Shown: positions 949 to 60,000 of the stretch, piece after piece
Position numbering within the stretch: the stretch's first letter is position 1
Layout of the letters: each line of letters starts with the position of its first letter
Origin: Dehalococcoidia bacterium
GTDB taxonomy: Bacteria; Chloroflexota; Dehalococcoidia; Plut-88900
Direction: 5' to 3'
Assembly (NCBI GenBank): GCA_965207225.1
Contig: CBDBLV010000005.1
Coordinates: forward strand, 1,632,001 to 1,696,000
Length of the DNA: 64,000 bases
Notes under the pieces: model-generated
Databases searched by the model: none
Seen by the model: only the letters and a program-made list of their open reading frames with translations
What the model was told of the DNA's origin: nothing
Translations under genes and position numbers: made by a program

Positions 949-1920
949 TCAATAGACCTCAAAGATTTTGAGGGTGATGAGCTTTATGAGGGCCTCGGCG
1001 GCGAAACGGGGTGTACGGCTGCTGGGGTCGAGGGGTGGGGAGGTCTCGACGAGGTCCATGGAGCCGATGGGGAACTGGGACAGGGGCCCGAGGATCCGGA
1101 AGAGGGTCGAGGCGGTCATAGCTCCCATGGTGACGGAGCCGGTGCCATCGGAGAAGCCAGCGTCTATCACGTCGATGTCGAAGCTCATGTAGATGGTGTC
1201 GCAGCCTCGCATGGCCAGCTCTCCGGCGCGGTAGCCGACGGTCTCGGGACCCATTTCCTCAACGTCTTCGCTGGTGAAGATGGTGCCTCCGTAGCGCCGG
1301 ATAAGCTCGACCTGGTCGAGGTAGCAGGGGCCCTGGATGCCGATGAAGACCATGTTTGCGGGCTCCATGGCATCGAGTTCGGAGATGCGCCGGGCGTTGG
1401 TGCCGTTCATGTACTTGCCGTAGGGGCCGTAGGAATCGGCGAAGTCCAGGTGTCCGTCGATGTGGATGTAGCCGACGCGGGCGTTGGGTCTAAGTCGGCC
1501 CAGGGCCCGGGTGTAGCCAAGGCAGGATGGGTAGCCGACGTAGTGGTCGCCGCCCAGGCAGACGGAGAATCCGCCCCGCATCACCACCTCAGAAACACCG
1601 CCGGCGATACCCTCGGTGGCCTTCATCACGTCGGAGGGGTAGGAGTTGAAGTCTCCGACATCGACGAGGGGGAAATCGTTGGGGCGGATTAGGGTGTGGC
1701 CAGTCGTTACGTCTATGAGGCCCTCGGGGGCGTGGTCGAACTTCTGGGAGACGTTAAGAGAGTGGTGGCGGATGCCCCGAGGGCCGTAGCGTTCGCCGAA
1801 GCGGTCCCGGAGGCTGTGGGGTGCGCCGCTTATGACGGTCATGCCGGGCTGTACGTCGGAGAGGCCGACGAGGGGAGCGCCCATGAAAGTCGGGGCTGAG
1901 GTATGTGCGTAGTCCTGCAT
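949..1920 (-). CDS. Ureohydrolase (agmatinase family), metal ligands intact
   Basis: GGDH, HIDGHLD and SFDIDVID motifs. Confidence 0.9.
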   Translation of the reverse strand: MQDYAHTSAPTFMGAPLVGLSDVQPGMTVISGAPHSLRDRFGERYGPRGIRHHSLNVSQKFDHAPEGLIDVTTGHTLIRPNDFPLVDVGDFNSYPSDVMKATEGIAGGVSEVVMRGGFSVCLGGDHYVGYPSCLGYTRALGRLRPNARVGYIHIDGHLDFADSYGPYGKYMNGTNARRISELDAMEPANMVFIGIQGPCYLDQVELIRRYGGTIFTSEDVEEMGPETVGYRAGELAMRGCDTIYMSFDIDVIDAGFSDGTGSVTMGAMTASTLFRILGPLSQFPIGSMDLVETSPPLDPSSRTPRFAAEALIKLITLKIFEVY

Positions 1921-1933
1921 GGTGTTTGGGGCG

Positions 1934-2917
1934 CTAAGGGTAGGCGAGGGCCTCCCCGGCGAGGAAACGGATGACTATCCAGGCCCCGAGCCGTTGTCCT
2001 GTGGCGGAGACCATGTTGATGGTCGGGTTCATGCCGACGAGGTCAAGGGCCCCGGCCTTCTTGCGGCGAAGGATGTCTACAGCTTTCAGTAGCTCGACGT
2101 TGGTGAGGCCATCGAAGCAGGGGTCGGCGGTGGCGGCGACGATGCCGCCATCCATCACGTCAAAGTCAATGCTGACGTAGACGGAATCACAGCCGTCACC
2201 GGCGATGGCCATAGCCTCTTCGACCACGGGCTGGAGGCCCCGTTGCCGGATGTCGGCGAGGGTGAAGACGGAGAGGTCATTTTCTCGGGCGTAGTCCCAC
2301 TCCTCTCGGCGGACGTAGCCGTTGACGCCCACCCAGACCATGTTCTTCGGGGAAACGGCGCCCGAATCCAGGATGCGTCGGGCGGTGGCGCCGCGCCAGA
2401 CGTCTCCCCAAACGGGATCACTTGACCCGAGGTCGAGGCGGCTGGAAAGCTGGATATAGCCAACGCTGCCGCCCGAGCGTTCGCGCACGGCATCGGCGTA
2501 GCCGAGGCAGAGGGGGTAGGAGATGAAATGGTCGCCGCCGAGGACTACTGGGGTCGCACCCGTGGAGGCTACTTCGTAAAGAGAGCGTCGCAACTCCTTC
2601 TCGGTGCGGGGCCAGTCGAGGGGATAGGCGTTGAAATCGCCGAGGTCGAGGATCTGGGAGCGTCGGGCGCCGCTCATGCGGTCCCCGGTGGTGATTTCGA
2701 CTAGGTCGTTGCGGGAGAAGGCGCCGGCGTAGTAGGAAGCGCTGTCTCGAATGGCCCGGCCTCCGAAGCGCGAGCCGATGCGGGAGGTGCAGGATAGATC
2801 GTAGGAGACGCCGCAGATGGCAACCATGCCCTCTCTGAGGTGCTCAAGGTCCCCGCGGGGCAGGTCCATGAAGGTGGTAATGCCCGGCGTGGAAACGGGT
2901 GCGGATTGCGTAGTCAT
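1934..2917 (-). CDS. Ureohydrolase-family protein, partly degenerate metal site
   Basis: GGDH and SIDFD retained; DxHxD replaced by SSRLD. Start placed at MTTQS to avoid overlap with the upstream gene. Confidence 0.85.
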   Translation of the reverse strand: MTTQSAPVSTPGITTFMDLPRGDLEHLREGMVAICGVSYDLSCTSRIGSRFGGRAIRDSASYYAGAFSRNDLVEITTGDRMSGARRSQILDLGDFNAYPLDWPRTEKELRRSLYEVASTGATPVVLGGDHFISYPLCLGYADAVRERSGGSVGYIQLSSRLDLGSSDPVWGDVWRGATARRILDSGAVSPKNMVWVGVNGYVRREEWDYARENDLSVFTLADIRQRGLQPVVEEAMAIAGDGCDSVYVSIDFDVMDGGIVAATADPCFDGLTNVELLKAVDILRRKKAGALDLVGMNPTINMVSATGQRLGAWIVIRFLAGEALAYP

Positions 2918-2931
2918 CAGGGTGTCGGGGG

Positions 2932-3912
2932 TCAGGCGCCGAAGACCCGGGGGGCGATTAGCTCGATGATGCACTGGGCGGCGAGGCGCTCGGAGCGGCC
3001 CCGGACGTCGAGGCCCGGGGCTACTTCCACCACGTCCAGGGCGGCGATCTCGGAGGAGGTGGACAGGGCGCGCATGAGAGCCAACAGGTCTCTGGGGACG
3101 ACGCCACCGACCACTATATCGGCGGTGCCGGAGGCGTAGCCTGAGTCTACGACACCGATGTCGAGGCTGACGTAAATGGCGTTGCAGCCGTCTCCGGCGA
3201 GGTCAAGGGCTCGTTGGGCAGCGGCCTCGGAGCCCTGTTCTTTCAGGGAGTCGGCGGTGATTACGGTGACTCCCTGGTCTCGGGCGTGGTCCCATTCGCG
3301 GTAGGGTATGTAACCCTGGACGCCGATGCACACGGTGTTCCTGGCCTGGACGTTGCCAGCGTCGAGGATGCGATGGAGGGACGCACCTGTCCAGTCGGGG
3401 CCGTGGGAGGAGTCGGGATTGGCGAGGGAAAGCTGGCCGGATAAACGGATGAGGCCGACATTTTGTCCCAGGCCTTCGGCCAGGCCTCCGACCAAGGGGA
3501 AGGTGATGAAGCGATCGCCGCCGAGGGCCACGGGGAAGCCGCTGGATTTCGAGATACGAGAGAAGGCATCGGTGCAGGCATCAATGACGCCCTGTGAGTC
3601 CAGGGGGGAAGACTGGAGGTCACCGAGGTCTACGAGGGCATTGGTACTGGGGGTGTTGAGAACTCGGCCGGAGATGACGTCGATGAGGGCGCCGGACTGG
3701 GAGGCCTGGAGGTCGTAGATGAAATCTGCGCTGGCTTCGCGGATGGACCTGGGGCCCTGGCGAACGCCCTGCCGGGAGGTGGATGCGCCGTCATAGGGGA
3801 TGCCGACGACGGCGACGGCACCTGGCTGGATGTCGTCGAAGTCGGCTCTCGGGGCACGGGCGAAGGAGTTTATGCCGGCGAACGAGGGTAAGAGGTCTCG
3901 CTGGTAGGGCAC
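2932..3912 (-). CDS. Ureohydrolase-family protein, degenerate metal site
   Basis: GIPYDG and GVRQGP fold motifs present; GGDR, SGQLS and SLDIG replace the ligand motifs. Confidence 0.85.
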   Translation of the reverse strand: MPYQRDLLPSFAGINSFARAPRADFDDIQPGAVAVVGIPYDGASTSRQGVRQGPRSIREASADFIYDLQASQSGALIDVISGRVLNTPSTNALVDLGDLQSSPLDSQGVIDACTDAFSRISKSSGFPVALGGDRFITFPLVGGLAEGLGQNVGLIRLSGQLSLANPDSSHGPDWTGASLHRILDAGNVQARNTVCIGVQGYIPYREWDHARDQGVTVITADSLKEQGSEAAAQRALDLAGDGCNAIYVSLDIGVVDSGYASGTADIVVGGVVPRDLLALMRALSTSSEIAALDVVEVAPGLDVRGRSERLAAQCIIELIAPRVFGA

Positions 3913-38705: not shown

Positions 38706-39229
38706 TTGGAGGGGAGGGTGCGCCGCGTCACGCGGCATAGGATACCCGACTCACTCGGGAGGGACTCGGAGGAAGTCCCTGGGTCAACCGACCTACCTTG
38801 AGGCGAAAGCCGAGGGGGAAAACAGCATGTCGGTAAAGCGGCTACGGCCCCAAAGCGTTGTAGGGCCGGTTCCGCAAGACCCGCGCGATATGGTGAAGGC
38901 TTGATTGCTTGAACCCCAGTCTCCAGTTGGTGAAAATCGCCACCCGCCGGTAGAACGCTTGTAACCCGGCGCCGCTCATCGCATGGATGTGTCCTGTCAA
39001 TCCGTGCACCTCCGATGAGCGGGCAATGACCCATGCGGTCAATTCAAGGAGACGAACGGGGCACCTACAGTCGCGCTAGAACGTCCTATGCTGACGGAAC
39101 GCGGGATCGCCTAAGGGACGCGAGTCCTATGGTGACGGAGCCTCCGTAGTAGTCCGAGGACGGGAAAGCCGTCCACATGGCGAAGGGAGGCAGGTGTCAA
39201 ACCGAAACTCAGAAAAGGAGGTGCGCGAG

Positions 39230-41020
39230 ATGCGCAACGCCGAAACCATACTGGGAATCATTCGCGACAGAGGTACACGGGGACTGCCCGTGAACGACCT
39301 TTACCGCCAACTTTGGAACCCGAACCTGTACCTGACGGCCTACGGGCGTATCGCCAAGAACGACGGTGCGCTCACCCCAGGCGCAACACCGGAGACCGCA
39401 GACGGGATGAAGATGGACGACATCCACGCGATCATCGAGGCCCTCCGCTTCGAGCGCTACCGATGGACTCCGGCCCGCCGCGTATACATCCCGAAAGCCA
39501 ACGGGAAGCGGCGGCCACTCGGACTCCCAACGTGGTCGGACAAAGTGCTGCAAGAAGTTATGCGTCTCCTACTGGAGGCGTACTACGAACCGCAGTTCAG
39601 CGACCGGTCGCACGGCTTCCGGCCCAACCGTGGATGCCACACGGCGTTCACGGAGATAACCCGCACCTGGACAGGCACGACATGGTTCATCGAAGGAGAT
39701 ATCGCCGGTTGCTTCGACAACATCGACCATAAGGTGTTGCTGGAAATACTAGGCGAGAACATCCAGGACAACCGTTTCCTGCGGCTTGTTTCCAACCTCC
39801 TTGGGGCTGGCTACCTTGAGGACTGGAAGCTCAACGCCACCTACAGTGGCACACCTCAGGGAAGTGTGGTGAGTCCCATACTCGCCAACGTCTACCTAGA
39901 CCGGTTGGACAGGTTCGCGGAGGACGTGCTCTTGCCCGAATACAACCGTGGCACCGGACGACGGAAGAACCCGCAGTATCAAAGGGTTTCCAAACGAGTT
40001 ATGCGTCTACGGCAATCTGGCCATGCAAAGGAAGCGGCGGAACTTCGCCCACTCCTGCGCACCATGCCCAGCCACGACACCCATGACCCGGCCTACCGCC
40101 GTCTCCGGTACACACGGTACGCCGACGACTTTCTACTCGGTTTTGCGGGGCCAAAGAACGAGGCCGATGAGATCAAGGCCCGGCTAGGCAAGTTCCTGCA
40201 AGATAACCTCAAGCTGGAGCTATCCGACGCTAAAACCCTGGTCACCCACGGCCGCACTGAGGCAGCACGGTTCCTCGGCTACGAGGTCGTCGTTCAGGGG
40301 AGCAAAGACAGGCTCGACGCCAGTGGCCGCCGATCGGTCAATGGTATCATCGGGCTGCGCGTTCCCCAAGACGTCGTACGCGCCAAGAGCGCCGCCTACA
40401 TGCGTAACGGCAAACCAATCCACCTTGGAATACGAATTCATGACTCGCTTTACAGCATCGTGGAACAGTACCAGGCGGAGTACCGGGGTGTCGTCAACTA
40501 CTACCGGCGTGCAACCAACCTGGGCGCACTAAGCCATCTCCGTTGGGTCATGGAAATGTCACTTGCCAAGACACTCGCGGCAAAGCTGAAGATCAGCGTG
40601 CCACAGGTGTTCAAGCGGTACAAAACTACGATTCAGACTGACAAAGGGCCTCGCAAGGTCCTGATGGTGAAAGTGGCCGAGCCGGGCGAAAAGACGCTGG
40701 TGACGTACTGGGGCGGGGTTTCGCTTGCGCGGGACAACGCGGCAACCCTGGTCGATAAACACCCCCCGATACTCAATAGTCGGACGGAACTCGAACAGCG
40801 CCTGCGGGCCAACGTCTGCGAGCTTTGCGGCTCAACGGTGAAGGTCCAGGTGCACCACGTACGAGCGCTGAAAGACTTGCGAAAGAAGGGACGGGCCAAG
40901 CCGCCCGTTTGGGTGGAGGTCATGGCAGCACGGCGTCGCAAGACGCTCGTGGCCTGTGCGTCATGCCACGCGGACATCCACGCCGGACGCCCGCTGAAGC
41001 AGAACGAACAGGCAGCCTGA
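39230..41020 (+). CDS. ltrA: Group II intron reverse transcriptase/maturase with C-terminal HNH-type domain
   Basis: RPLGLP, SHGFRP, GDIAGCFD, GTPQGS, RYADD, CELCG..HH..CxxCH; AAGGAGGT RBS. Confidence 0.96.
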   Translation: MRNAETILGIIRDRGTRGLPVNDLYRQLWNPNLYLTAYGRIAKNDGALTPGATPETADGMKMDDIHAIIEALRFERYRWTPARRVYIPKANGKRRPLGLPTWSDKVLQEVMRLLLEAYYEPQFSDRSHGFRPNRGCHTAFTEITRTWTGTTWFIEGDIAGCFDNIDHKVLLEILGENIQDNRFLRLVSNLLGAGYLEDWKLNATYSGTPQGSVVSPILANVYLDRLDRFAEDVLLPEYNRGTGRRKNPQYQRVSKRVMRLRQSGHAKEAAELRPLLRTMPSHDTHDPAYRRLRYTRYADDFLLGFAGPKNEADEIKARLGKFLQDNLKLELSDAKTLVTHGRTEAARFLGYEVVVQGSKDRLDASGRRSVNGIIGLRVPQDVVRAKSAAYMRNGKPIHLGIRIHDSLYSIVEQYQAEYRGVVNYYRRATNLGALSHLRWVMEMSLAKTLAAKLKISVPQVFKRYKTTIQTDKGPRKVLMVKVAEPGEKTLVTYWGGVSLARDNAATLVDKHPPILNSRTELEQRLRANVCELCGSTVKVQVHHVRALKDLRKKGRAKPPVWVEVMAARRRKTLVACASCHADIHAGRPLKQNEQAA

Positions 41021-41152
41021 GTACCAACCGTTGCAACAGATAGGTAGTGTTCCAACCGTGAAACGCCCAAACACCTTCCGTTCCCAACGGGGCCGGTGGT
41101 AGACTGGGACACGGCAGACCTTCCCTCGAAACAGCACTGGAGGTTCCGGAGC

Positions 41153-41653
41153 GTGGATACAAAACTCGTCTTCGTGATCCCGACCTTGGTCGGACTCCTC
41201 CTTGCATTCAGCTTGGCTTGCAGTGATGCAAAACAAGACCCTGTGCTTGCTCGGGAGCAGGTTGAACTGGACAGGCATCGTGACATGTGGGAGCAAACCC
41301 GCGCCCATGACTACACGTATGAGTACAGCGTACTCTGCGAGTGCCCGGATCACGCCAGCAAGACCGTCAAGGTCACTGTACTGGACGGGGACATAGAGTC
41401 AGTCGAAAGCGTAGGGTTCGTCGAGTCCGCCATCTATACAAAATCTGGTGGGCCAATGACAGAACTACCCCGCTACCACACCATCGACCGCTTTTTCGAC
41501 GTGATCCAAGAAGCCATTACCGGTGAGGCCGACCAACTTACCGTCAGCTACGACAGTGAGTTCGGGTACCCAACGAAAGTCGAGATTGACTACACCGTCA
41601 ATGCGATAGACGACGAGTATACCCTCAAGGTCAAAGCTTACTCGCCTCACTGA
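41153..41653 (+). CDS. Lipoprotein, DUF6174-like, inside intron domain IV
   Basis: GGAGGT RBS; signal peptide ending LAFSLA-C; W....DYTYEY...CEC, TIDRFF, YD.EFGYP, DDE. Confidence 0.75.
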   Translation: MDTKLVFVIPTLVGLLLAFSLACSDAKQDPVLAREQVELDRHRDMWEQTRAHDYTYEYSVLCECPDHASKTVKVTVLDGDIESVESVGFVESAIYTKSGGPMTELPRYHTIDRFFDVIQEAITGEADQLTVSYDSEFGYPTKVEIDYTVNAIDDEYTLKVKAYSPH

Positions 41654-42076
41654 ACAGGCTCACACGAGCCTGGCCCCTACGATGCGGACGGTGCCACCGG
41701 CACCTCACCACAGACGCTACCTCCTGTAACGACACCGGAGAGCCGGATGACGCGAAAGTGTCACGTCCGGTTCGGAGGGGGGCCGACGGAAAAGTGCTCC
41801 ATTAGCGCGGAGTAACTCGCCGGCGGCCTACCCGACACTTGTAGGGTGAGCGGCAGTTTCTCAGGGGAGGCGCGGGCCAAGAGCCTTGCGAAATACCCGG
41901 GCATCGAGGGAGCGGCGTGAATGTGCGGTATATGGCACCGTGTTCATTGGCCCACGTGCGTGATTGACGCCCAGCTCAAGAAGGACCAACCATAGCTACG
42001 ATGCGCGTGGGCGCCGTGAATCATGGCGCGAAATATCATGGATCCGGTTAGAGCTTCCTCTACCGTCAGCTTGAGG

Positions 42077-42400
42077 TTACTCCTCTCCTACCTCGGAGAA
42101 GTTGGTGATGGCAACTTCGCCTTCTGGAAACTCGGCGACGATCTTCAGTTTCCCGCCTACTGCCTCAATGTAGGACCGCAAGCTGGATACGTACACATCG
42201 GCCCGCTGCTCCAGCTTGGAAACTGCGGGTTGGTTCACATTCAGCATCTTGGCCATGTCTCGCTGGGTTAGCGCCAGCGCCCGGCGAAGCTCGTGCAGCG
42301 GCATCTCGGCGAGCAACTCCCTCTTAAGGTCGTCGATGCGCCGCCGGCGCTCCGGCGTGAAATCGCTGGTCAGTTCGCTAAATGGATGGCGTCCACTCAT
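42077..42400 (-). CDS. XRE/HigA-type HTH antitoxin
   Basis: LTQRDMA.MLNVNQPAVSKLEQRAD..VSSLRSYIEAVGG. Confidence 0.9.
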   Translation of the reverse strand: MSGRHPFSELTSDFTPERRRRIDDLKRELLAEMPLHELRRALALTQRDMAKMLNVNQPAVSKLEQRADVYVSSLRSYIEAVGGKLKIVAEFPEGEVAITNFSEVGEE

Positions 42401-42759
42401 TTGATCAGTCCTTCCTTTCGAAGCTCTTCAAGATGTTCATCGTAGAGGGCGTCGGCCACGGGCACGTACTCCTCATAGAACCGGTCGTTGCCTGTCTTGT
42501 CGCCTCCGATGAGCAGAATCGACGTTCGCCTGGGGTCGAAGGCGTAGAAGACTCGAAGGGGCCTGCCGGCACTCTGCGTTCGAAGCTCGCGCATAACACC
42601 GTGCCGAGAGCCGGTGATGTCTGAGGAGTAGGAGTATGGCAGGTTGGGGCCGTGCTCCATCAGCAACTCGACTCTGGCGGCTACTGCATCCTGCTGGTTC
42701 TCCGAAAGTTCCTGCCACCACCGCCTGAACTCATCCGTGTATTCGACCTCCCAAGGCAT
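42397..42759 (-). CDS. RelE/HigB (Gp49-like) toxin
   Basis: WEVEYTDEF, MRELR, RVFYAFDPRR..ILLIGGDK; toxin precedes antitoxin. Confidence 0.9.
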   Translation of the reverse strand: MPWEVEYTDEFRRWWQELSENQQDAVAARVELLMEHGPNLPYSYSSDITGSRHGVMRELRTQSAGRPLRVFYAFDPRRTSILLIGGDKTGNDRFYEEYVPVADALYDEHLEELRKEGLIK

Positions 42760-53745: not shown

Positions 53746-54129
53746 TCAGGAGATGCCGAGGTCCCGGGCTGTTGAACGGAGTTTCCTGTCGAGTGTGGCC
53801 AGAGGCGTGCCGAGGGTCTGGGCCAGGTGGAGGTAGCTGGCGTCATAGGCGGTGAGTCCGGTGTCGAGGGCTAGTTGCAGGGTTTCTTCGAAGTCAACTT
53901 CTTTTCAGCTAATCACTGTGCTGAGTGCTACATTCAGCGCTTCAAATATGCCGATTCGCTCGGAAGGATTCTGATTTGCTTTCTTCCAGGCAATGTTGGT
54001 GACCTCAAAGGTCAAGAGGTGTGGAGCGTAGAATTCGTACCCTTCCACGAGTGCTAATGCTTCGTCTGCATTTAATTCATCGAAAGCAATAGCGGCGAAT
54101 ACGGATGAGTCAACGACTATGGCCGGCAT
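53746..54129 (-). pseudogene. VapC/PIN toxin interrupted by an in-frame TGA
   Basis: IVVDSS...STVIS*KEVDF...LTAYDASYLHLA...LATLD; TGA at 53905-53907; 128 codons overall. Confidence 0.8.
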
Positions 54130-54352
54130 CTCTATCTTCCCTAATCATTTGAGTTGCTTCATTCGTTCTACGAAGGTTCAATCGCTTGATTTCTTCATAT
54201 GCCTCTTTAATCGTCAAACGCCTGGGCAATAGAGTCTCCTCAAGGATTGAAAGCAATTCACCTTGAATGGAACGATGGTTGCGTTTTGCTCGATCTCTTA
54301 ATCTCTGCGCTAAGGGGTCAGGAACATTTCGGATGGAAAGATTAACTGTCAT
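54110..54352 (-). CDS. FitA/Arc-like ribbon-helix-helix antitoxin
   Basis: LSIRNVPD..AQRLR.RA.RNHRSIQGE, C-terminal IREDRD. Confidence 0.88.
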   Translation of the reverse strand: MTVNLSIRNVPDPLAQRLRDRAKRNHRSIQGELLSILEETLLPRRLTIKEAYEEIKRLNLRRTNEATQMIREDRDAGHSR

Positions 54353-54466: not shown

Positions 54467-54808
54467 TTAGCCGCCCCGGCCGCAGGCGCAGTTGCCGCCA
54501 CAACCTCCTCCACCACCGCCCTGGAAGTTGGGGTTGTTGACCGTGAAACCGGAGCGTTCGAGGGTCTCAATGTAGTCGATTTGCGAACCCTCAAGCATCG
54601 GGGCGCTTTCGGGGTCAAAGACGACGGTGAGGCCATCCTGCTCTACGGTCATGTCCTCTGCAGAGATGTCGTTGTCCAGGGACATCATGTACTGCGGCCC
54701 CCCGCAGCCCATGCCTGCAATCATCACCCGGAGGGAGATTTCTTCCTCTTCCTGCTCGGCGATGAATTCCTTAACCTTTTCGAGAGCGATGGGAGTTAGG
54801 CTTACCAT
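54467..54808 (-). CDS. HesB/IscA Fe-S cluster assembly accessory protein
   Basis: LRV...GCGG.QY, IDY.....GF...NPN, C-terminal CGGNCAC. Confidence 0.9.
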   Translation of the reverse strand: MVSLTPIALEKVKEFIAEQEEEEISLRVMIAGMGCGGPQYMMSLDNDISAEDMTVEQDGLTVVFDPESAPMLEGSQIDYIETLERSGFTVNNPNFQGGGGGGCGGNCACGRGG

Positions 54809-54962
54809 GTGGTTCTCCTAGAGGGCGTTCTAACCGGACGTTTGGGATAGGTTACCGCGAGGGCGGTTGGGGGTCAAGAGTCGGGCGCAACGCCGGAAGA
54901 GGAAACGGGTACTGATATAGTATTCCGGAAATCGGCCGGGCCCGGACTATTGGAGGGATTCC

Positions 54963-56141
54963 ATGACCATGCAATTGGACAGTGAATACGAAAAAGGCAG
55001 ACCGGCGATGACAGCATTGCGAAGGGATATCCACTGCCACCCGGAGCTGTCATTCAAGGAAGTTAGGACGGCGGCGCTGGTAGCCGAGAAGTTGTTGGAG
55101 CTAGGGCTGGAGGTGAGGACGGGTGTCGGCAAAACAGGGGTCACGGGGCTGCTGAAGGGTGGGTCTCCGGGAAAGACCCTGCTTATCAGGGCAGACATGG
55201 ATGCCTTGCCAATTGAAGAATCCAATGGCTTGGCCTTCCGGTCACGGGAGCCGGGGGTGATGCATGCCTGAGGTCACGATGGGCACGTAGCCGTGGCTAT
55301 GTCAGTTGCATCGGTACTGACGGGAGTGAAGGATGATATTAAGGGCAACGTGAAGTTTGCCTTCCAGCCGGCGGAGGAGACCGCGGGAGGTGCGCTAGGG
55401 ATGATCGAAGCGGGGGCGTTGGAGGACCCCAAGGTGGATGCCACTATCGCCCTGCACATTATCAACACGTTGGAGACAGGCAAGGTCGGGGTGCGGGTGG
55501 GCGGGATGTTCGCCAGCGTTGACGAGTTCACCATCAGGATCAAGGGGCGCGGGGGTCACGCGGCACATCCAGAGTCGTTGGTTGACCCGGTGCTTGTTGC
55601 GGGGCAGGCCGTAAGTGCGCTTCACCATATAGTGGGTCGGAATGTGGGGGCGCAGGATTCGGCGGTGCTGAGCATCGGAATGATAAGGGGTGGGACAGCA
55701 TTCAACATCATCCCCGAGGAGGTGGAGTTGAAAGGGACGGTGAGGGCATTCGATGACGGGACTCGAGACAGGGTAATGAGTCGTATTGAAGAAGTGCTGG
55801 CAGGGATAACCGCCGCGGCGGGTGCGACCTACGAATTCGAGGACATCTACCAGAGTCCAGTTGTCATGAACGAGGCAGAAATCACGGACTTAGTCCGTCA
55901 GGCAGCGGAACGGGCCATTGGCGCCGAGAACGTGATTGAGTGCGAACCGACCATGGGCGGCGATGACCAGGCGTATTTCCAGAAGGAAGTGCCAGGTTGC
56001 TACTTCATTGTCGGGGGTGGGGATGAGGGCGCGGGATACGGGCCCCATCACAGCGCGACATTCGGGTTTGACGAGCGGGCGCTAGAGGTCGGGCTCCGGG
56101 TAATGACGGAGGCGGCGTTAGAGTATCTGGGTCGGGGGTAG
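54963..56141 (+). CDS. M20D amidohydrolase, probable selenoprotein (in-frame TGA at 55269)
   Basis: Two ORFs in the same frame join as RADMDAL...MHA*GHDGH...FQPAEE...GGHAA.P; the TGA occupies the Cys of MHACGHD. Confidence 0.85.
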
Positions 56142-56258: not shown

Positions 56259-56540
56259 TTGAGATTTGATTGGAGCGAGGAGAAAAACCACAGGCTCATC
56301 AGGCAAAGGGGAGTCTCATTTGACAGTGTCGTCGCATCCATAGAAGGTGGCCGAGTCTTGGATGTTGCAAGGCACAGTAATCAGGATCGCTATCCGGGGC
56401 AGTGGATGTATGTCGTTGAGATTAATGACTATATTCACATGGTGCCCTTTGTTGTCCAGGACGATGGGTCCCATTTTCTTAAGACCATTATCCCCAATAG
56501 CAGATTAACGAGAGAATATAGAAGGAGGAGACAGCCTTGA
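56259..56540 (+). CDS. BrnT-like toxin
   Basis: FDWSEEKN...RGVSF, Y...VPFV, FLKTIIP. Confidence 0.85.
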   Translation: MRFDWSEEKNHRLIRQRGVSFDSVVASIEGGRVLDVARHSNQDRYPGQWMYVVEINDYIHMVPFVVQDDGSHFLKTIIPNSRLTREYRRRRQP

Positions 56541-56842
56541 ATGAAAGTCTGGATAGGGAAGAAATGGAAATCCTAGAGCAATACGAAAGAGGGGAATTTA
56601 AATCAGTACCCAATATGGAGCAGGCGATAGAATGGGCCAGAGAGGCAGCACGCAACACATTAAAGAAGACCAAACGGGTGAATCTTCGCGTAACGGAGCG
56701 TGACTTTGATCTAGCCCACGCGCGGGCGCGGGAGGAAGGGATTCCGTATCAGACACTGCTTTCCAGCGTGATTCACAAGTATTTGCGTGGTCGGCTGGTT
56801 GAGAAACCGAGGTCTGAAGTCGGGGTTAGGGAGATGATGTGA
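56537..56842 (+). CDS. CopG/BrnA-like antitoxin
   Basis: KRVNLR, A.EEGIPYQTL.SS..HKY. Confidence 0.85.
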   Translation: MNESLDREEMEILEQYERGEFKSVPNMEQAIEWAREAARNTLKKTKRVNLRVTERDFDLAHARAREEGIPYQTLLSSVIHKYLRGRLVEKPRSEVGVREMM

Positions 56843-56909
56843 GATCACATACCCTCCATAAGGCTGTCATTGGGTTGATAGCCCTACGCCTAAGGCTTAT
56901 AGTTGAGCT

Positions 56910-57149
56910 TTGGAATACGAATGGGATGAGGTCAAATGCCTAGCTAATCTCAAAAAGCACCATGTGGACTTTTACGCAGTCTATGGGTTTGACTGGAATA
57001 CGGCGACTGTCAGCTACAGCCAACGTGAGGGTGAGTCCCGATGGACGGCTACGGTATACGCAGGTGATCTGTTCATCTTTCTGGTGTTCACGATAAGGGA
57101 CAACAAGATTCGGGTGATCAGCATCCGCAAGGCGAAATTGGAAGAGTAG
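56910..57149 (+). CDS. BrnT family toxin
   Basis: YEWDE.K...NLKKH..DF, VFT.R...IRVISIRKA. Confidence 0.8.
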   Translation: MEYEWDEVKCLANLKKHHVDFYAVYGFDWNTATVSYSQREGESRWTATVYAGDLFIFLVFTIRDNKIRVISIRKAKLEE

Positions 57150-57150
57150 G

Positions 57151-57495
57151 ATGAAGATTCGGGAGACTAAGCCTAACAAGATCAAGTTGGATCCTGCTGA
57201 TGTAGATAGTTACCGGCAGAAGATAGAAGAACTCGCGGCATTGGAATTGGATTTCGTGGAGGTAAAGGCCATTTATGGCGAGGACGTAGCCATTGACGTT
57301 GGCATTGCCCGAGACCCTGACTGCCCGGAACTAACCGCAGAAGAAATTGCTCAAATGCGCCCCGCCATTGAAGTTGTTCCGGAGATAGTGATGGCATACC
57401 GACGAGGCGAGCTAAGAATCCGACCAGACCTATTGGCGAAAAGAGACAATGGTGGAATGGAAGCTGGACGGCCAACGGAGGTGAGGCGTGACTAA
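57151..57495 (+). CDS. Putative BrnA-related antitoxin / hypothetical protein
   Basis: Directly follows BrnT; DPDCPELT...MRP motif. Confidence 0.55.
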   Translation: MKIRETKPNKIKLDPADVDSYRQKIEELAALELDFVEVKAIYGEDVAIDVGIARDPDCPELTAEEIAQMRPAIEVVPEIVMAYRRGELRIRPDLLAKRDNGGMEAGRPTEVRRD

Positions 57496-58518: not shown

Positions 58519-60000
58519 ATGGCACAACAGGCACTGGTAGGCAGCATAAGGGCCCCGGACTTCCCGAGGGATATAGACTGGCTGAACGTCGGGCGTTCTC
58601 TGAGCATGGAGGACTTCAAGGGCAAGATAGTCATTCTGGACTTCTGGACCTACTGCTGAGTCAACTGCATGCACGTATTTCCGCAGTTGCGGAAACTGGA
58701 AGAGAAATATCGGGACGAGCTGGTGGTGGTCGGGGTCCATTCGGCGAAGTTCACCACCGAGAAGGAAACGGCGAACATCGAAAAGGCGATACGTCGCTTC
58801 GAGCTGGAACACCCGGTGGTCAACGACAAAGACTTCCGGGTGTGGAGCCAGTACTCGGCGCGTGCGTGGCCGACCCTCTATGTGATCGACCCCGAGGGCA
58901 ACATCCTCGGGCGACATGAAGGTGAGATAACCTTTGGGGCTTTCGACAGGGTTATCAGCGACATGATCACCGAGTTCGAGGCCCGGGGCACGTTAGACCG
59001 GTCACCGATTCCCGGCTTCTACGAGCACAAGAAAGAAGGAGGCATACTCTCCTTCCCCAGCAAGATCATCTCGAATGAAGCTGGGTCCCGACTTTTCGTG
59101 TCGGACTCCAACCACAACCGTATTCTGTCCATCTCGATGGATGGCCAGATTTTGGACGTAATCGGTGGAGAGGAGTCCGGGCTGGAGGACGGAAACTTTG
59201 CAGACGCCCAGTTCAACCATCCCCACGGGCTGGCCATTTCGGGAAAGAACCTCTACGTGGCGGATACGGAGAACCACTGCATACGTCGAGTGGACCTGCA
59301 GACCCGAACGGTCGAGACGATAGCCGGGACCGGAGAACAAGCGCGCATGTTCCATGATGGTGGAGTTGGAGAGGTTGCCCTGAACTCGCCCTGGGACCTG
59401 ACCTGCCAGGACGGGATGCTCTACATTGCCATGGCGGGCTTCCACCAGCTGTGGGTGATGCACCTGGAATCAGGGTACGTGGGGCCTTTCGCCGGGAGCG
59501 GCAGGGAGGGGATCCGAGATGGGTCTCTGCGCAACTCGATGCTGGCCCAGCCTACGGGAATCGACACTGACGGTGACACCATCTACTTCGCAGACAGCGA
59601 GACCAGCGCCGTTCGGACGGCTACGAGAGGGGAGTCGGGGCAGGTGAGCACGCTGGTGGGCACCGGACTGTTCGACTTCGGAGACAGGGACGGGGTCGGA
59701 GACCGTGCACTTCTCCAGCACGTGCAGGGAATCTGCTGGCACGATGGCATGCTCTACGTCACGGATACCTACAACAACAAGGTCAAGCGGATCGACCCCT
59801 TGACCCGGGCTGTGGTCAGCTTTACGGGGTTGGGGGATACGGGCTTCGAGGATGGGTTATCCAAAGAGGCCCTGTTCTACGAACCCGAGGGTCTCGCTAT
59901 CGCTGACGGCAAGATGTACATCGCCGACACCAATAACCACGCCATCAGGGTTGCGGCTCTGTCCACGGGCACGGTGTCGACCCTGAAAATCAAGGAATAA
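58519..60000 (+). CDS. Thioredoxin-like plus NHL-repeat protein, probable selenoprotein (in-frame TGA at 58657)
   Basis: MAQQALVGSIRAPDFP...WLN...GKIVILDFWTYC*VNCMH continues in frame into the listed ORF; GAGGAG RBS; NHL repeats. Confidence 0.88.

Follow-up and report, generated by a model that had tools for sequence, protein, structure and literature searches.

A predicted selenocysteine codon at the metal-binding cysteine position of an M20D amidohydrolase gene from Dehalococcoidia

The window analysed here is a 64,000-nucleotide stretch from the genome of a Dehalococcoidia bacterium (assembly GCA_965207225.1, contig CBDBLV010000005.1, positions 1,632,001 to 1,696,000 of the forward strand), and all coordinates are counted from its first letter. 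It encodes an amidohydrolase of the M20D family whose reading frame is interrupted once, by a TGA at codon 103, in the column of the cysteine proposed to bind the catalytic metals. We propose, with a probability of roughly 0.85 judged from comparative sequence evidence, that this gene specifies a full-length amidohydrolase in which UGA103 is read as selenocysteine (Sec, U) by SelB and tRNA-Sec, guided by a hairpin in the messenger, so as to place a selenolate at the metal site.

With the TGA taken as U, the plus-strand interval 54963-56141 translates into 392 residues, and the sole internal stop is the TGA at 55269-55271, in the context MHA-U-GHDGH. Under translation table 11, the same interval is read as two open reading frames (ORFs), one of 102 amino acids (54963-55271) and one of 282 amino acids, running from a GTG at 55293 to 56141. 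The read-through protein displayed the Pfam domain PF01546 (Peptidase_M20) at residues 74-386 (E 3.2e-44), into which the dimerisation or lid domain PF07687 is inserted at residues 188-280 (E 1.5e-13). The NCBIfam model TIGR01891 ('amidohydrolase') scored 367.4 bits, vs. a cut-off of 153.75, with profile positions 1-366 of 366 covered. All substrate-specific NCBIfam models remained under their cut-offs (CpsA, 374 vs. 500 bits; DoeB2, 277 vs. 550 bits), and no selenoprotein-specific NCBIfam model was among the best 25 of the 28 matches to the protein. From its family, the enzyme is predicted to be an aminoacylase, a carboxypeptidase, or a dipeptidase.

Solved M20D structures aligned with the read-through protein over nearly its full length: 1ysj (E 1.4e-79, residues 16-386), 4ewt (1e-73), 1xmb (1.7e-68), and 6slf (1.6e-50). 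An earlier note on this DNA, made from the letters alone, had placed the TGA exactly at the C of the motif MHACGHD and had described both halves of the gene as intact. Codon 103 falls on this Cys in each of the structures 1ysj, 4ewt, 1xmb, 3io1, and 6slf, and the gene is one open frame except for the TGA; the observation is therefore correct and is confirmed at these coordinates. Residues H101, A102, G104, H105, D106, E138, E139, H165, H362, and H363 are all present, and each of their columns is at least 95% one residue among 141 aligned rows. Together with the motif, the EE pair and the three further His columns are predicted to make up the two-metal site. The column of the motif Cys is itself the TGA, and the xHACGHD motif is complete only if Sec, the analogue of Cys, is inserted there.

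Homologues that share the TGA, which the earlier note had suggested looking for, were found in at least eight named phylum-level groups. They came from a DNA pattern scan for M-H-A-TGA-G-H-D in one genome per species (185,579 species), which returned 46 loci; the pattern catches the exact motif only, so this count is a lower bound. Six of these (L005, L006, L013, L025, L032, and L038) were set aside as unrelated chance matches, and the remaining 40 are M20D homologues with TGA at the Cys column. Because 40 homologous loci share it at the same column, this TGA is not simply a nonsense mutation that arose by chance. Both halves are open and homologous to the window protein across the TGA in 34 of them. 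Another, L016, is probably intact, having a frame open for 103 codons but an alignment that begins at residue 37, and L043 ends at a contig edge. By named taxon, the 36 intact or cut loci belong to Chloroflexota/Dehalococcoidia (15), Planctomycetota (8), Methylomirabilota (5), Candidatus Fervidifonticultor (2), 'uncultured bacterium' (2), and Armatimonadetes, Deltaproteobacteria, Bacteroidia, and Clostridia (1 each). Identity to the window protein among the TGA loci extends from 94% (L042) down to 29% (L036). The window most resembles the Dehalococcoidia metagenome-assembled genome (MAG) of L042, in which the M20D protein is 94% identical and a second TGA gene, described below, 98% identical. 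At the same column, all 105 of the 105 full-length homologues listed in a protein collection have Cys (H[AGS]CGHD).

Both sides of the TGA display selection on protein sequence. Among 23 pairs of TGA-bearing genes (with synonymous divergence, dS, up to about 2), the ratio of nonsynonymous to synonymous divergence (dN/dS) was 0.058-0.473 over the 100 codons that lead up to the TGA and 0.039-0.375 downstream of it. These values are well under 1 on either side and therefore reveal protein-coding constraint (purifying selection) on both halves. In addition, H108, which was left free in the search pattern, is retained in 39 of the 40 TGA loci, and its column, like those of G104, H105, and D106, is at least 95% one residue in the 141-row alignment. 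Constrained residues between the TGA and the next start codon argue against a split gene, with termination at the TGA and a restart behind it. Judged from these alignments, the stretch just after the TGA is coding, and it appears nearly certain that UGA103 is translated and that the gene makes a functional full-length M20D enzyme.

A hairpin after the TGA had also been reported in the earlier note, and it proved to lie at a conserved distance and to contain covarying pairs. In the window, its loop begins 23 nt after the U of the UGA. We counted as a hairpin any helix of at least 6 contiguous pairs with a loop of 3-7 nt, a G in the first two loop bases, and a loop start 20-30 nt after the U. 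By these criteria, which were fixed after the folds were seen, the hairpin is present in 35 of 37 TGA genes, vs. 1446 of 13773 in-frame positions elsewhere in these genes (10.5%; Fisher p 4e-32). It is present in 0 of 12 plasmid-borne Cys-form M20D genes with G+C of 57-74% (Fisher p 1e-9), controls that are about 40-43% identical to the window protein and are not its nearest Cys relatives; they were picked from 40 listed of 1323 matching records, favouring G+C-rich and diverse hosts. The 35 hairpins represent 21 distinct arm/loop/arm combinations and occur in two registers, with the loop at +23 or at +26 to +28 after the U.

RNAalifold, which was given the alignments only and not the helices, recovered both registers. 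In alignment A1 (14 sequences), it paired columns 18-23 with 28-33, a helix of 6 pairs of which 2 were changed on both sides and 0 were broken, and which is the same as the window stem 55285-55291/55296-55302. In alignment A2 (21 sequences), it paired columns 20-26 with 34-40, a helix of 7 pairs of which 4 were changed on both sides, with 1 broken cell. Paired cells amounted to 93.4% (A1) and 82.0% (A2). The covariation score was 0.403 in A1 vs. a shuffled mean of 0.189, and 0.447 in A2 vs. 0.210, values reached by 0 of 500 shuffles, and it fell when the helix partners were slid by 1-3 columns; the structures were derived from the same sequences that were scored, a bias in their favour. Column 114 is Met in 12 of the 36 Sec rows and Ala, Thr, or Gly in the Cys rows, and the ATG of Met114 sits in the 3′ arm of the helix, a pattern that fits a possible constraint of the RNA on the protein sequence. 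On this structural and comparative evidence, the hairpin is a candidate selenocysteine insertion sequence (SECIS). The position of its loop and the G/U in it resemble the SECIS of Escherichia coli fdhF and the rules of bSECISearch, which we take to be a loop 16-37 nt after the UGA and a G in the loop.

The window contains a second candidate selenoprotein gene, 3.4 kb downstream of the M20D gene, in which a single TGA occupies the first Cys of a CxxC motif in a thioredoxin-fold domain and is again followed by a hairpin. Among 120 listed homologues of this second protein, 60 have Cys there, of the type FWTYC-C-INC, and the other 60 start just past it. Fragments of the second gene lie on contigs of 3,425,268, 3,446,617, and 3,260,108 bases, the sizes of the contigs of L042, L039, and L009; it therefore appears that related Dehalococcoidia carry both TGA genes together. 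Ten more read-through frames scanned in the window yielded no domain across a TGA. According to the available part of the BSepDB paper, two Dehalococcoidia genomes are among the ten richest, with 49 and 46 selenoprotein genes (PMC13326102). Labels of six isolates among the TGA-bearing genomes did not turn up in the available part of its supplement, whose table identifies genomes by organism name and GCA number. For the M20D gene, the in-frame UGA lies at a Cys column and is conserved in orthologues under constraint, as is predicted for a selenoprotein gene, and the residue inserted at UGA103 is very probably selenocysteine. We infer this insertion, and with it the presence of Sec machinery in the genome.

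Sec and Cys forms are interleaved on the tree of the family. A FastTree phylogeny of 141 rows, computed after masking of the Cys/Sec column and exclusion of the cut or broken loci, compared the window and 35 loci with 105 Cys forms. It placed the window within an all-Sec clade of 9 Chloroflexota rows (support 100) and required 13 changes between Sec and Cys, at least 6 of them forced by well-supported branches. For an IQ-TREE phylogeny, L036 was omitted and the rows were thinned at identities of 90% and 70%, leaving 27 Sec and 40 Cys forms; this tree required 10 changes, of which no fewer than 5 were forced. The best tree with all Sec forms together was rejected by the approximately unbiased (AU) test, its log-likelihood being lower by 322 (p 1.5e-88). 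These trees carried long-branch warnings and their root is unknown, so that gains are indistinguishable from losses. Even so, the Cys/Sec column has changed state several times or been transferred between lineages. Column 327 (window codon 55941-55943) is Cys in 8 of the 36 Sec rows (22%) vs. 1% of the 105 Cys rows; this Cys327 may reflect shared ancestry only or may act as a partner thiol for the selenol.

The metal site is modelled on characterized members of the family. In Corynebacterium CsAga, the Cys bridges the two catalytic metal ions, according to the available part of its description. Residue 103 aligned with the motif Cys of the CsAga structure (6slf). This bears out the earlier note insofar as it had called the motif Cys a metal ligand; the bridging identity that it had also given to this Cys draws on the ligands that we take Arabidopsis ILL2 to have (Cys137, His139, Glu173, His197, and His397). 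These ligands are spaced in the same way as U103, H105, E139, H165, and H363, all of them invariant columns. This spacing supports the motif Cys, not C346, as the metal ligand, an assignment that draws on the literature. A metal-binding, bridging role of residue 103 is likely.

In the mechanism that we propose, SelB and Sec-tRNA would read UGA103, aided by the hairpin, which starts 16 nt after the UGA. A selenolate would then take the place of the Cys thiolate at the two-metal centre, and hydrolysis would proceed as in the Cys enzymes, through a metal-bound water activated by the neighbouring E138. Selenium might be of advantage in three ways: the ligand would be deprotonated at a lower pH, it could hold borderline or soft metals more tightly, and an exposed metal ligand could recover more easily after oxidation. 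We infer both the bridging role and these advantages.

Besides the after-the-fact definition of the hairpin and the distance of its Cys controls, several observations weigh against the selenocysteine reading. The hairpin of the window has a folding z of -1.22, and 24 of 200 shuffles fold as well. When synonymous codons were resampled in 37 genes, z averaged -0.38 and p<0.05 was seen in only 3 of the 37; ranked against other stretches of its own gene, the sequence after the UGA stood at a median of 18%. Folding energy was rejected as evidence for the hairpin, being non-significant in the window, vs. synonymous resampling, and vs. other stretches of the same genes; the hairpin is significant because of the comparison with other genes only and is, alone, no stronger than chance. 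The two most divergent loci, L008 (a Bacteroidia MAG) and L036 (a Clostridia MAG), do not have a hairpin that fits the above criteria; after its UGA, L036 folds strongly into a different shape, with rank 6 of 407 among stretches of its own gene and p 0.02 vs. synonymous resampling. Rfam returned no SECIS match in the whole window at gathering thresholds and none in 55200-55400 at E up to 10. No tRNA genes were found in the 64-kb window, and no SelA, SelB, or SelD domains among the 59 window ORFs scanned. Further damage was seen in four of the 40 TGA loci: L003 and L018 have one frameshift each, in L007 a further in-frame stop lies 17 codons ahead of the TGA, and L019 (Acidovorax sacchari chromosome) is reduced to a remnant, some 100 residues long, that contains GHDGQ. 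These four may be true pseudogenes or assembly errors. The family also has a second conserved Cys, C346, in the 141-row alignment, and no clue to the substrate is conserved across clades among the neighbours covered (67 of 112 flanking ORFs at 35 loci).

A nonsense mutation from TGC or TGT to TGA would leave a downstream ORF that is decaying or unused. One base change is enough to turn a Cys codon into TGA, the four loci just described are clearly damaged elsewhere, and gene callers split the gene, and yet 35 loci are intact on both sides in several phyla, with dN/dS far under 1 on both sides at dS up to about 2. The TGA is also kept between genes that are just 45-50% identical, and the hairpin is kept via compensatory changes. 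The pseudogene reading is strongly disfavoured by these data, and we consider it highly improbable. A gene split in two would stop at the UGA and restart at a nearby GTG or ATG (55293 in the window), giving two polypeptides that possibly assemble. Such a restart would lose G104-H105-D106-x-H108, in which each named residue is the conserved one in at least 95% of the 141 rows and H108, outside the search pattern, is found in 39 of 40 TGA loci. Nor does a Shine-Dalgarno sequence precede 55293, and a split exactly at the Cys codon in at least five separate lineages is not expected. Many TGA genes do have a start codon 8-11 codons past the TGA, and both pieces are in databases as separate proteins; we nevertheless regard a split gene as quite unlikely.

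A further alternative is translation of the UGA with another residue, either by near-cognate insertion of Trp or Cys or by a Cys-charged tRNA-Sec-like tRNA brought in by a SelB-like factor. Mukai and colleagues reportedly described tRNA-Sec-like tRNAs charged with Cys. A conserved UGA at a Cys column followed by a hairpin cannot separate Sec from SECIS-dependent insertion of Cys, and the tRNA search and the ORFs scanned revealed no Sec machinery in the window. A plain Cys codon would suffice for Cys, however, so that repeated switches to UGA would lack a reason; the lineage has selenoprotein-rich genomes, and the second UGA, at the first Cys of CxxC, gives the classical UxxC signature both in this window and in genomes related to it. 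We judge read-through with a residue other than Sec to be improbable. Reassignment of TGA as a sense codon (genetic codes 4 or 25) has nothing in its favour beyond the frame that is open under such codes. It is already refuted by the use of stop codons within the window, where TGA serves as an ordinary stop for 16 of the 40 Pfam-supported ORFs, which end in it at the expected length. Only two of the checked read-through frames have a domain across the TGA, and the TGA loci span many named phyla; the chance of a reassigned code is negligible.

The form in which databases hold this gene was examined in a collection of 5.8 billion proteins, in which 120 homologues were listed for the whole protein and 120 for its N-terminal piece. 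The 15 closest of the 120 whole-protein homologues (72-98% identity) are C-terminal pieces of 269-282 amino acids that cover 68-72% of the query, and the seven of them that were read all start a few residues past the TGA. The other 105 are full-length Cys forms, with identities of at most 53%. With the 102-residue N-terminal query, 37 of the 120 listed short proteins end exactly in ...MHA, among them P0148, P0185, and P0210, which are named 'hypothetical protein [Chloroflexi bacterium]' at NCBI. Sixty of the other 83 short matches include the Cys motif and represent ordinary partial genes. Among the database clusters of N-terminal fragments, 27 have a length of exactly 102 amino acids, consistent with a start at ATG 54963. 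The gene is routinely annotated as two fragments, and no listed near relative is held at full length. At these genes, which now stand as a 102-residue 'hypothetical protein' plus a C-terminal piece some 280 residues long, genome annotation could be corrected in Chloroflexota, Planctomycetota, and Methylomirabilota.

Table 1. Coordinates of the M20D gene, its parts, and other features of the window
Feature	Position	Strand	Remarks
M20D amidohydrolase gene	54963..56141	+	392 codons including the predicted Sec103, then TAG stop
Shine-Dalgarno-like GGAGGG	54952..54957	+	5 nt ahead of ATG 54963; read from the sequence
N-terminal part of M20D gene	54963..55268	+	102 codons, ending ...GVMHA; homology to the M20D N-terminus
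In-frame TGA	55269..55271	+	codon 103; proposed selenocysteine codon at the metal-binding Cys column
C-terminal part of M20D gene	55272..56138	+	289 codons; holds the remaining invariant active-site columns
H105	55275-55277	+	invariant column
D106		+	invariant column
E138/E139	55374-55379	+	invariant columns
H165	55455-55457	+	invariant column
H362/H363	56046-56051	+	invariant columns
SECIS-like hairpin	55285..55302	+	7-bp stem 55285-55291/55296-55302; 4-nt loop CGUG 55292-55295
Second candidate selenoprotein gene	58519..60000	+	TlpA/ResA-like thioredoxin-fold domain and NHL repeats
TGA of second gene	58657-58659	+	single TGA; first Cys of CxxC, in a C-U-x-x-C motif
Hairpin of second gene	58678-58695	+	7 bp; loop 58685-58688, starting 28 nt after the U
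HesB/IscA-like Fe-S assembly gene (PF01521)	54467-54808	-	divergent, upstream of M20D gene; also at L014, L035, L039
Toxin-antitoxin-like pairs	53905-54352 (-), 56259-57495 (+), 42077-42759 (-)		several small pairs around M20D gene
Group II intron	39194-41836	+	ORF 39194-41020 with reverse transcriptase, maturase, and HNH domains
Group II intron RNA (Rfam RF00029)	41738-41836	+	62.8 bits
DUF6174 ORF	41096-41653	+	between the intron ORF and the RF00029 match
Three tandem arginase-family paralogues	949-3912	-	323, 346, and 326 amino acids

Other features of the window are included in Table 1. Among the flanking ORFs scanned, a HesB/IscA-like gene upstream of the M20D gene was found within the window's own clade only. 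The copy in the window is a Cys form, and the family has Sec forms elsewhere in the catalogue of a 2026 review of prokaryotic selenoproteins, as far as that source was available (PMC13188914). The toxin-antitoxin-like pairs consist of a FitA-like ribbon-helix-helix antitoxin with a small ORF, a BrnT with a downstream ORF, and a Gp49/HTH_37 pair; in the clade of L022 and L023, a Phd/YefM antitoxin adjoins the M20D gene. Across the window (1-64000), G exceeds C on the plus strand almost throughout, with a GC skew of 0.09-0.35 in 2-kb intervals; the skew is about 0 near 40-46 kb, and the cumulative skew climbs almost monotonically. Long ORFs without a family that lie opposite real genes look like by-products of this skewed composition.

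No M20 or amidohydrolase selenoprotein had been reported in the literature searched, a search that extended to sources other than subscription journals. The available part of Table 1 of the 2026 review has no M20/M25/M40, amidohydrolase, or peptidase entry among its 119 prokaryotic selenoprotein families, and the same family words are absent from the available main text of that review (PMC13188914). They are likewise absent from the main text and the available supplement portion of the BSepDB paper (PMC13326102), from the main text and supplements of deep-Sep, from the main text of a 2022 preprint on eight new families, and from the supplements of a 2016 comparative-genomics paper and a 2008 Global Ocean Sampling (GOS) paper. 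The Sec form of M20D is regarded here as not described in the searchable literature. The earlier note had described such a use of Sec as different from that in most selenoproteins, in agreement with the 2026 catalogue, in the available part of which most families are redox proteins and a few predicted ones are not (PMC13188914).

Taken together, we lean towards the view that M20D-Sec is a widespread, repeatedly arisen, and uncatalogued selenoprotein family in which a selenolate would hold, and probably bridge, both metal ions of a hydrolase. If this is true, a genetically encoded selenium ligand would be at work in a non-redox metalloenzyme, and a metallohydrolase would be added to a list of selenoproteins that is dominated by thiol oxidoreductases. 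Sec and Cys forms interleave, and the costly Sec machinery would therefore have been favoured more than once at a metal-ligand position. The interleaving would represent a natural experiment on the use of selenium where no redox turnover is expected, with many natural pairs of Sec and Cys orthologues in which metal affinity and selectivity, the pKa of the ligand, and recovery from oxidation could be probed. M20D aminoacylases are in biocatalytic use, according to the available part of one source (PMC11511702), and a selenium ligand might alter their metal preference or robustness.

The window protein shares with the Cys-type M20D enzymes of TIGR01891 (YxeP, 1ysj; the Staphylococcus aureus peptidase, 4ewt; Arabidopsis ILL2, 1xmb; Corynebacterium CsAga, 6slf; and Sulfolobus CpsA) the two Pfam domains and the invariant motif columns, and it differs from them in that its gene encodes the motif Cys position by UGA. 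The hairpin is like the bacterial SECIS of the fdhF type in that it lies in the coding region just after the UGA, with its loop at +23 to +28 nt, stems of 6-11 bp among the M20D genes, and small loops with an early G, often GGUC or GUC; the absence of an Rfam match and the two helix registers among the M20D genes set it apart. The second TGA gene resembles TlpA/ResA-like UxxC selenoproteins in having UxxC for CxxC in a thiol-disulfide oxidoreductase domain, whereas it is fused to NHL repeats. Several TlpA/ResA-like thioredoxin-fold families with UxxC are included in the available part of the 2026 catalogue (PMC13188914).

The same catalogue, as far as available, includes predicted selenoproteins with non-redox domains, some of them hydrolase-like, in which Sec occupies a Cys column of an enzyme other than a thiol oxidoreductase: UshA-like proteins (CxU, CxxU), a glutamine amidotransferase related to the C-terminus of CTP synthase (GxUxG), and a methylated-DNA-protein-cysteine methyltransferase (PMC13188914). 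These resemble M20D-Sec in that respect but have other folds, none being M20/M25/M40, and in the available part of that review's Table 1 none of them is said to use Sec as a ligand in a hydrolytic centre with two metals (PMC13188914). Sec as a metal ligand is described, in the same partly available review, for formate dehydrogenase FdhA (Mo/W-Se) and the [NiFeSe] hydrogenases (PMC13188914). As proposed for M20D-Sec, Sec stands there for a Cys that coordinates the catalytic metal, and Cys orthologues exist. The difference is that these enzymes perform redox reactions at Mo, W, or Ni, whereas M20D has a two-metal hydrolase centre with no textbook redox step. The argument that the available part of the review makes for the [NiFeSe] hydrogenases, based on recovery from oxidation, resembles the one suggested here for M20D-Sec (PMC13188914).

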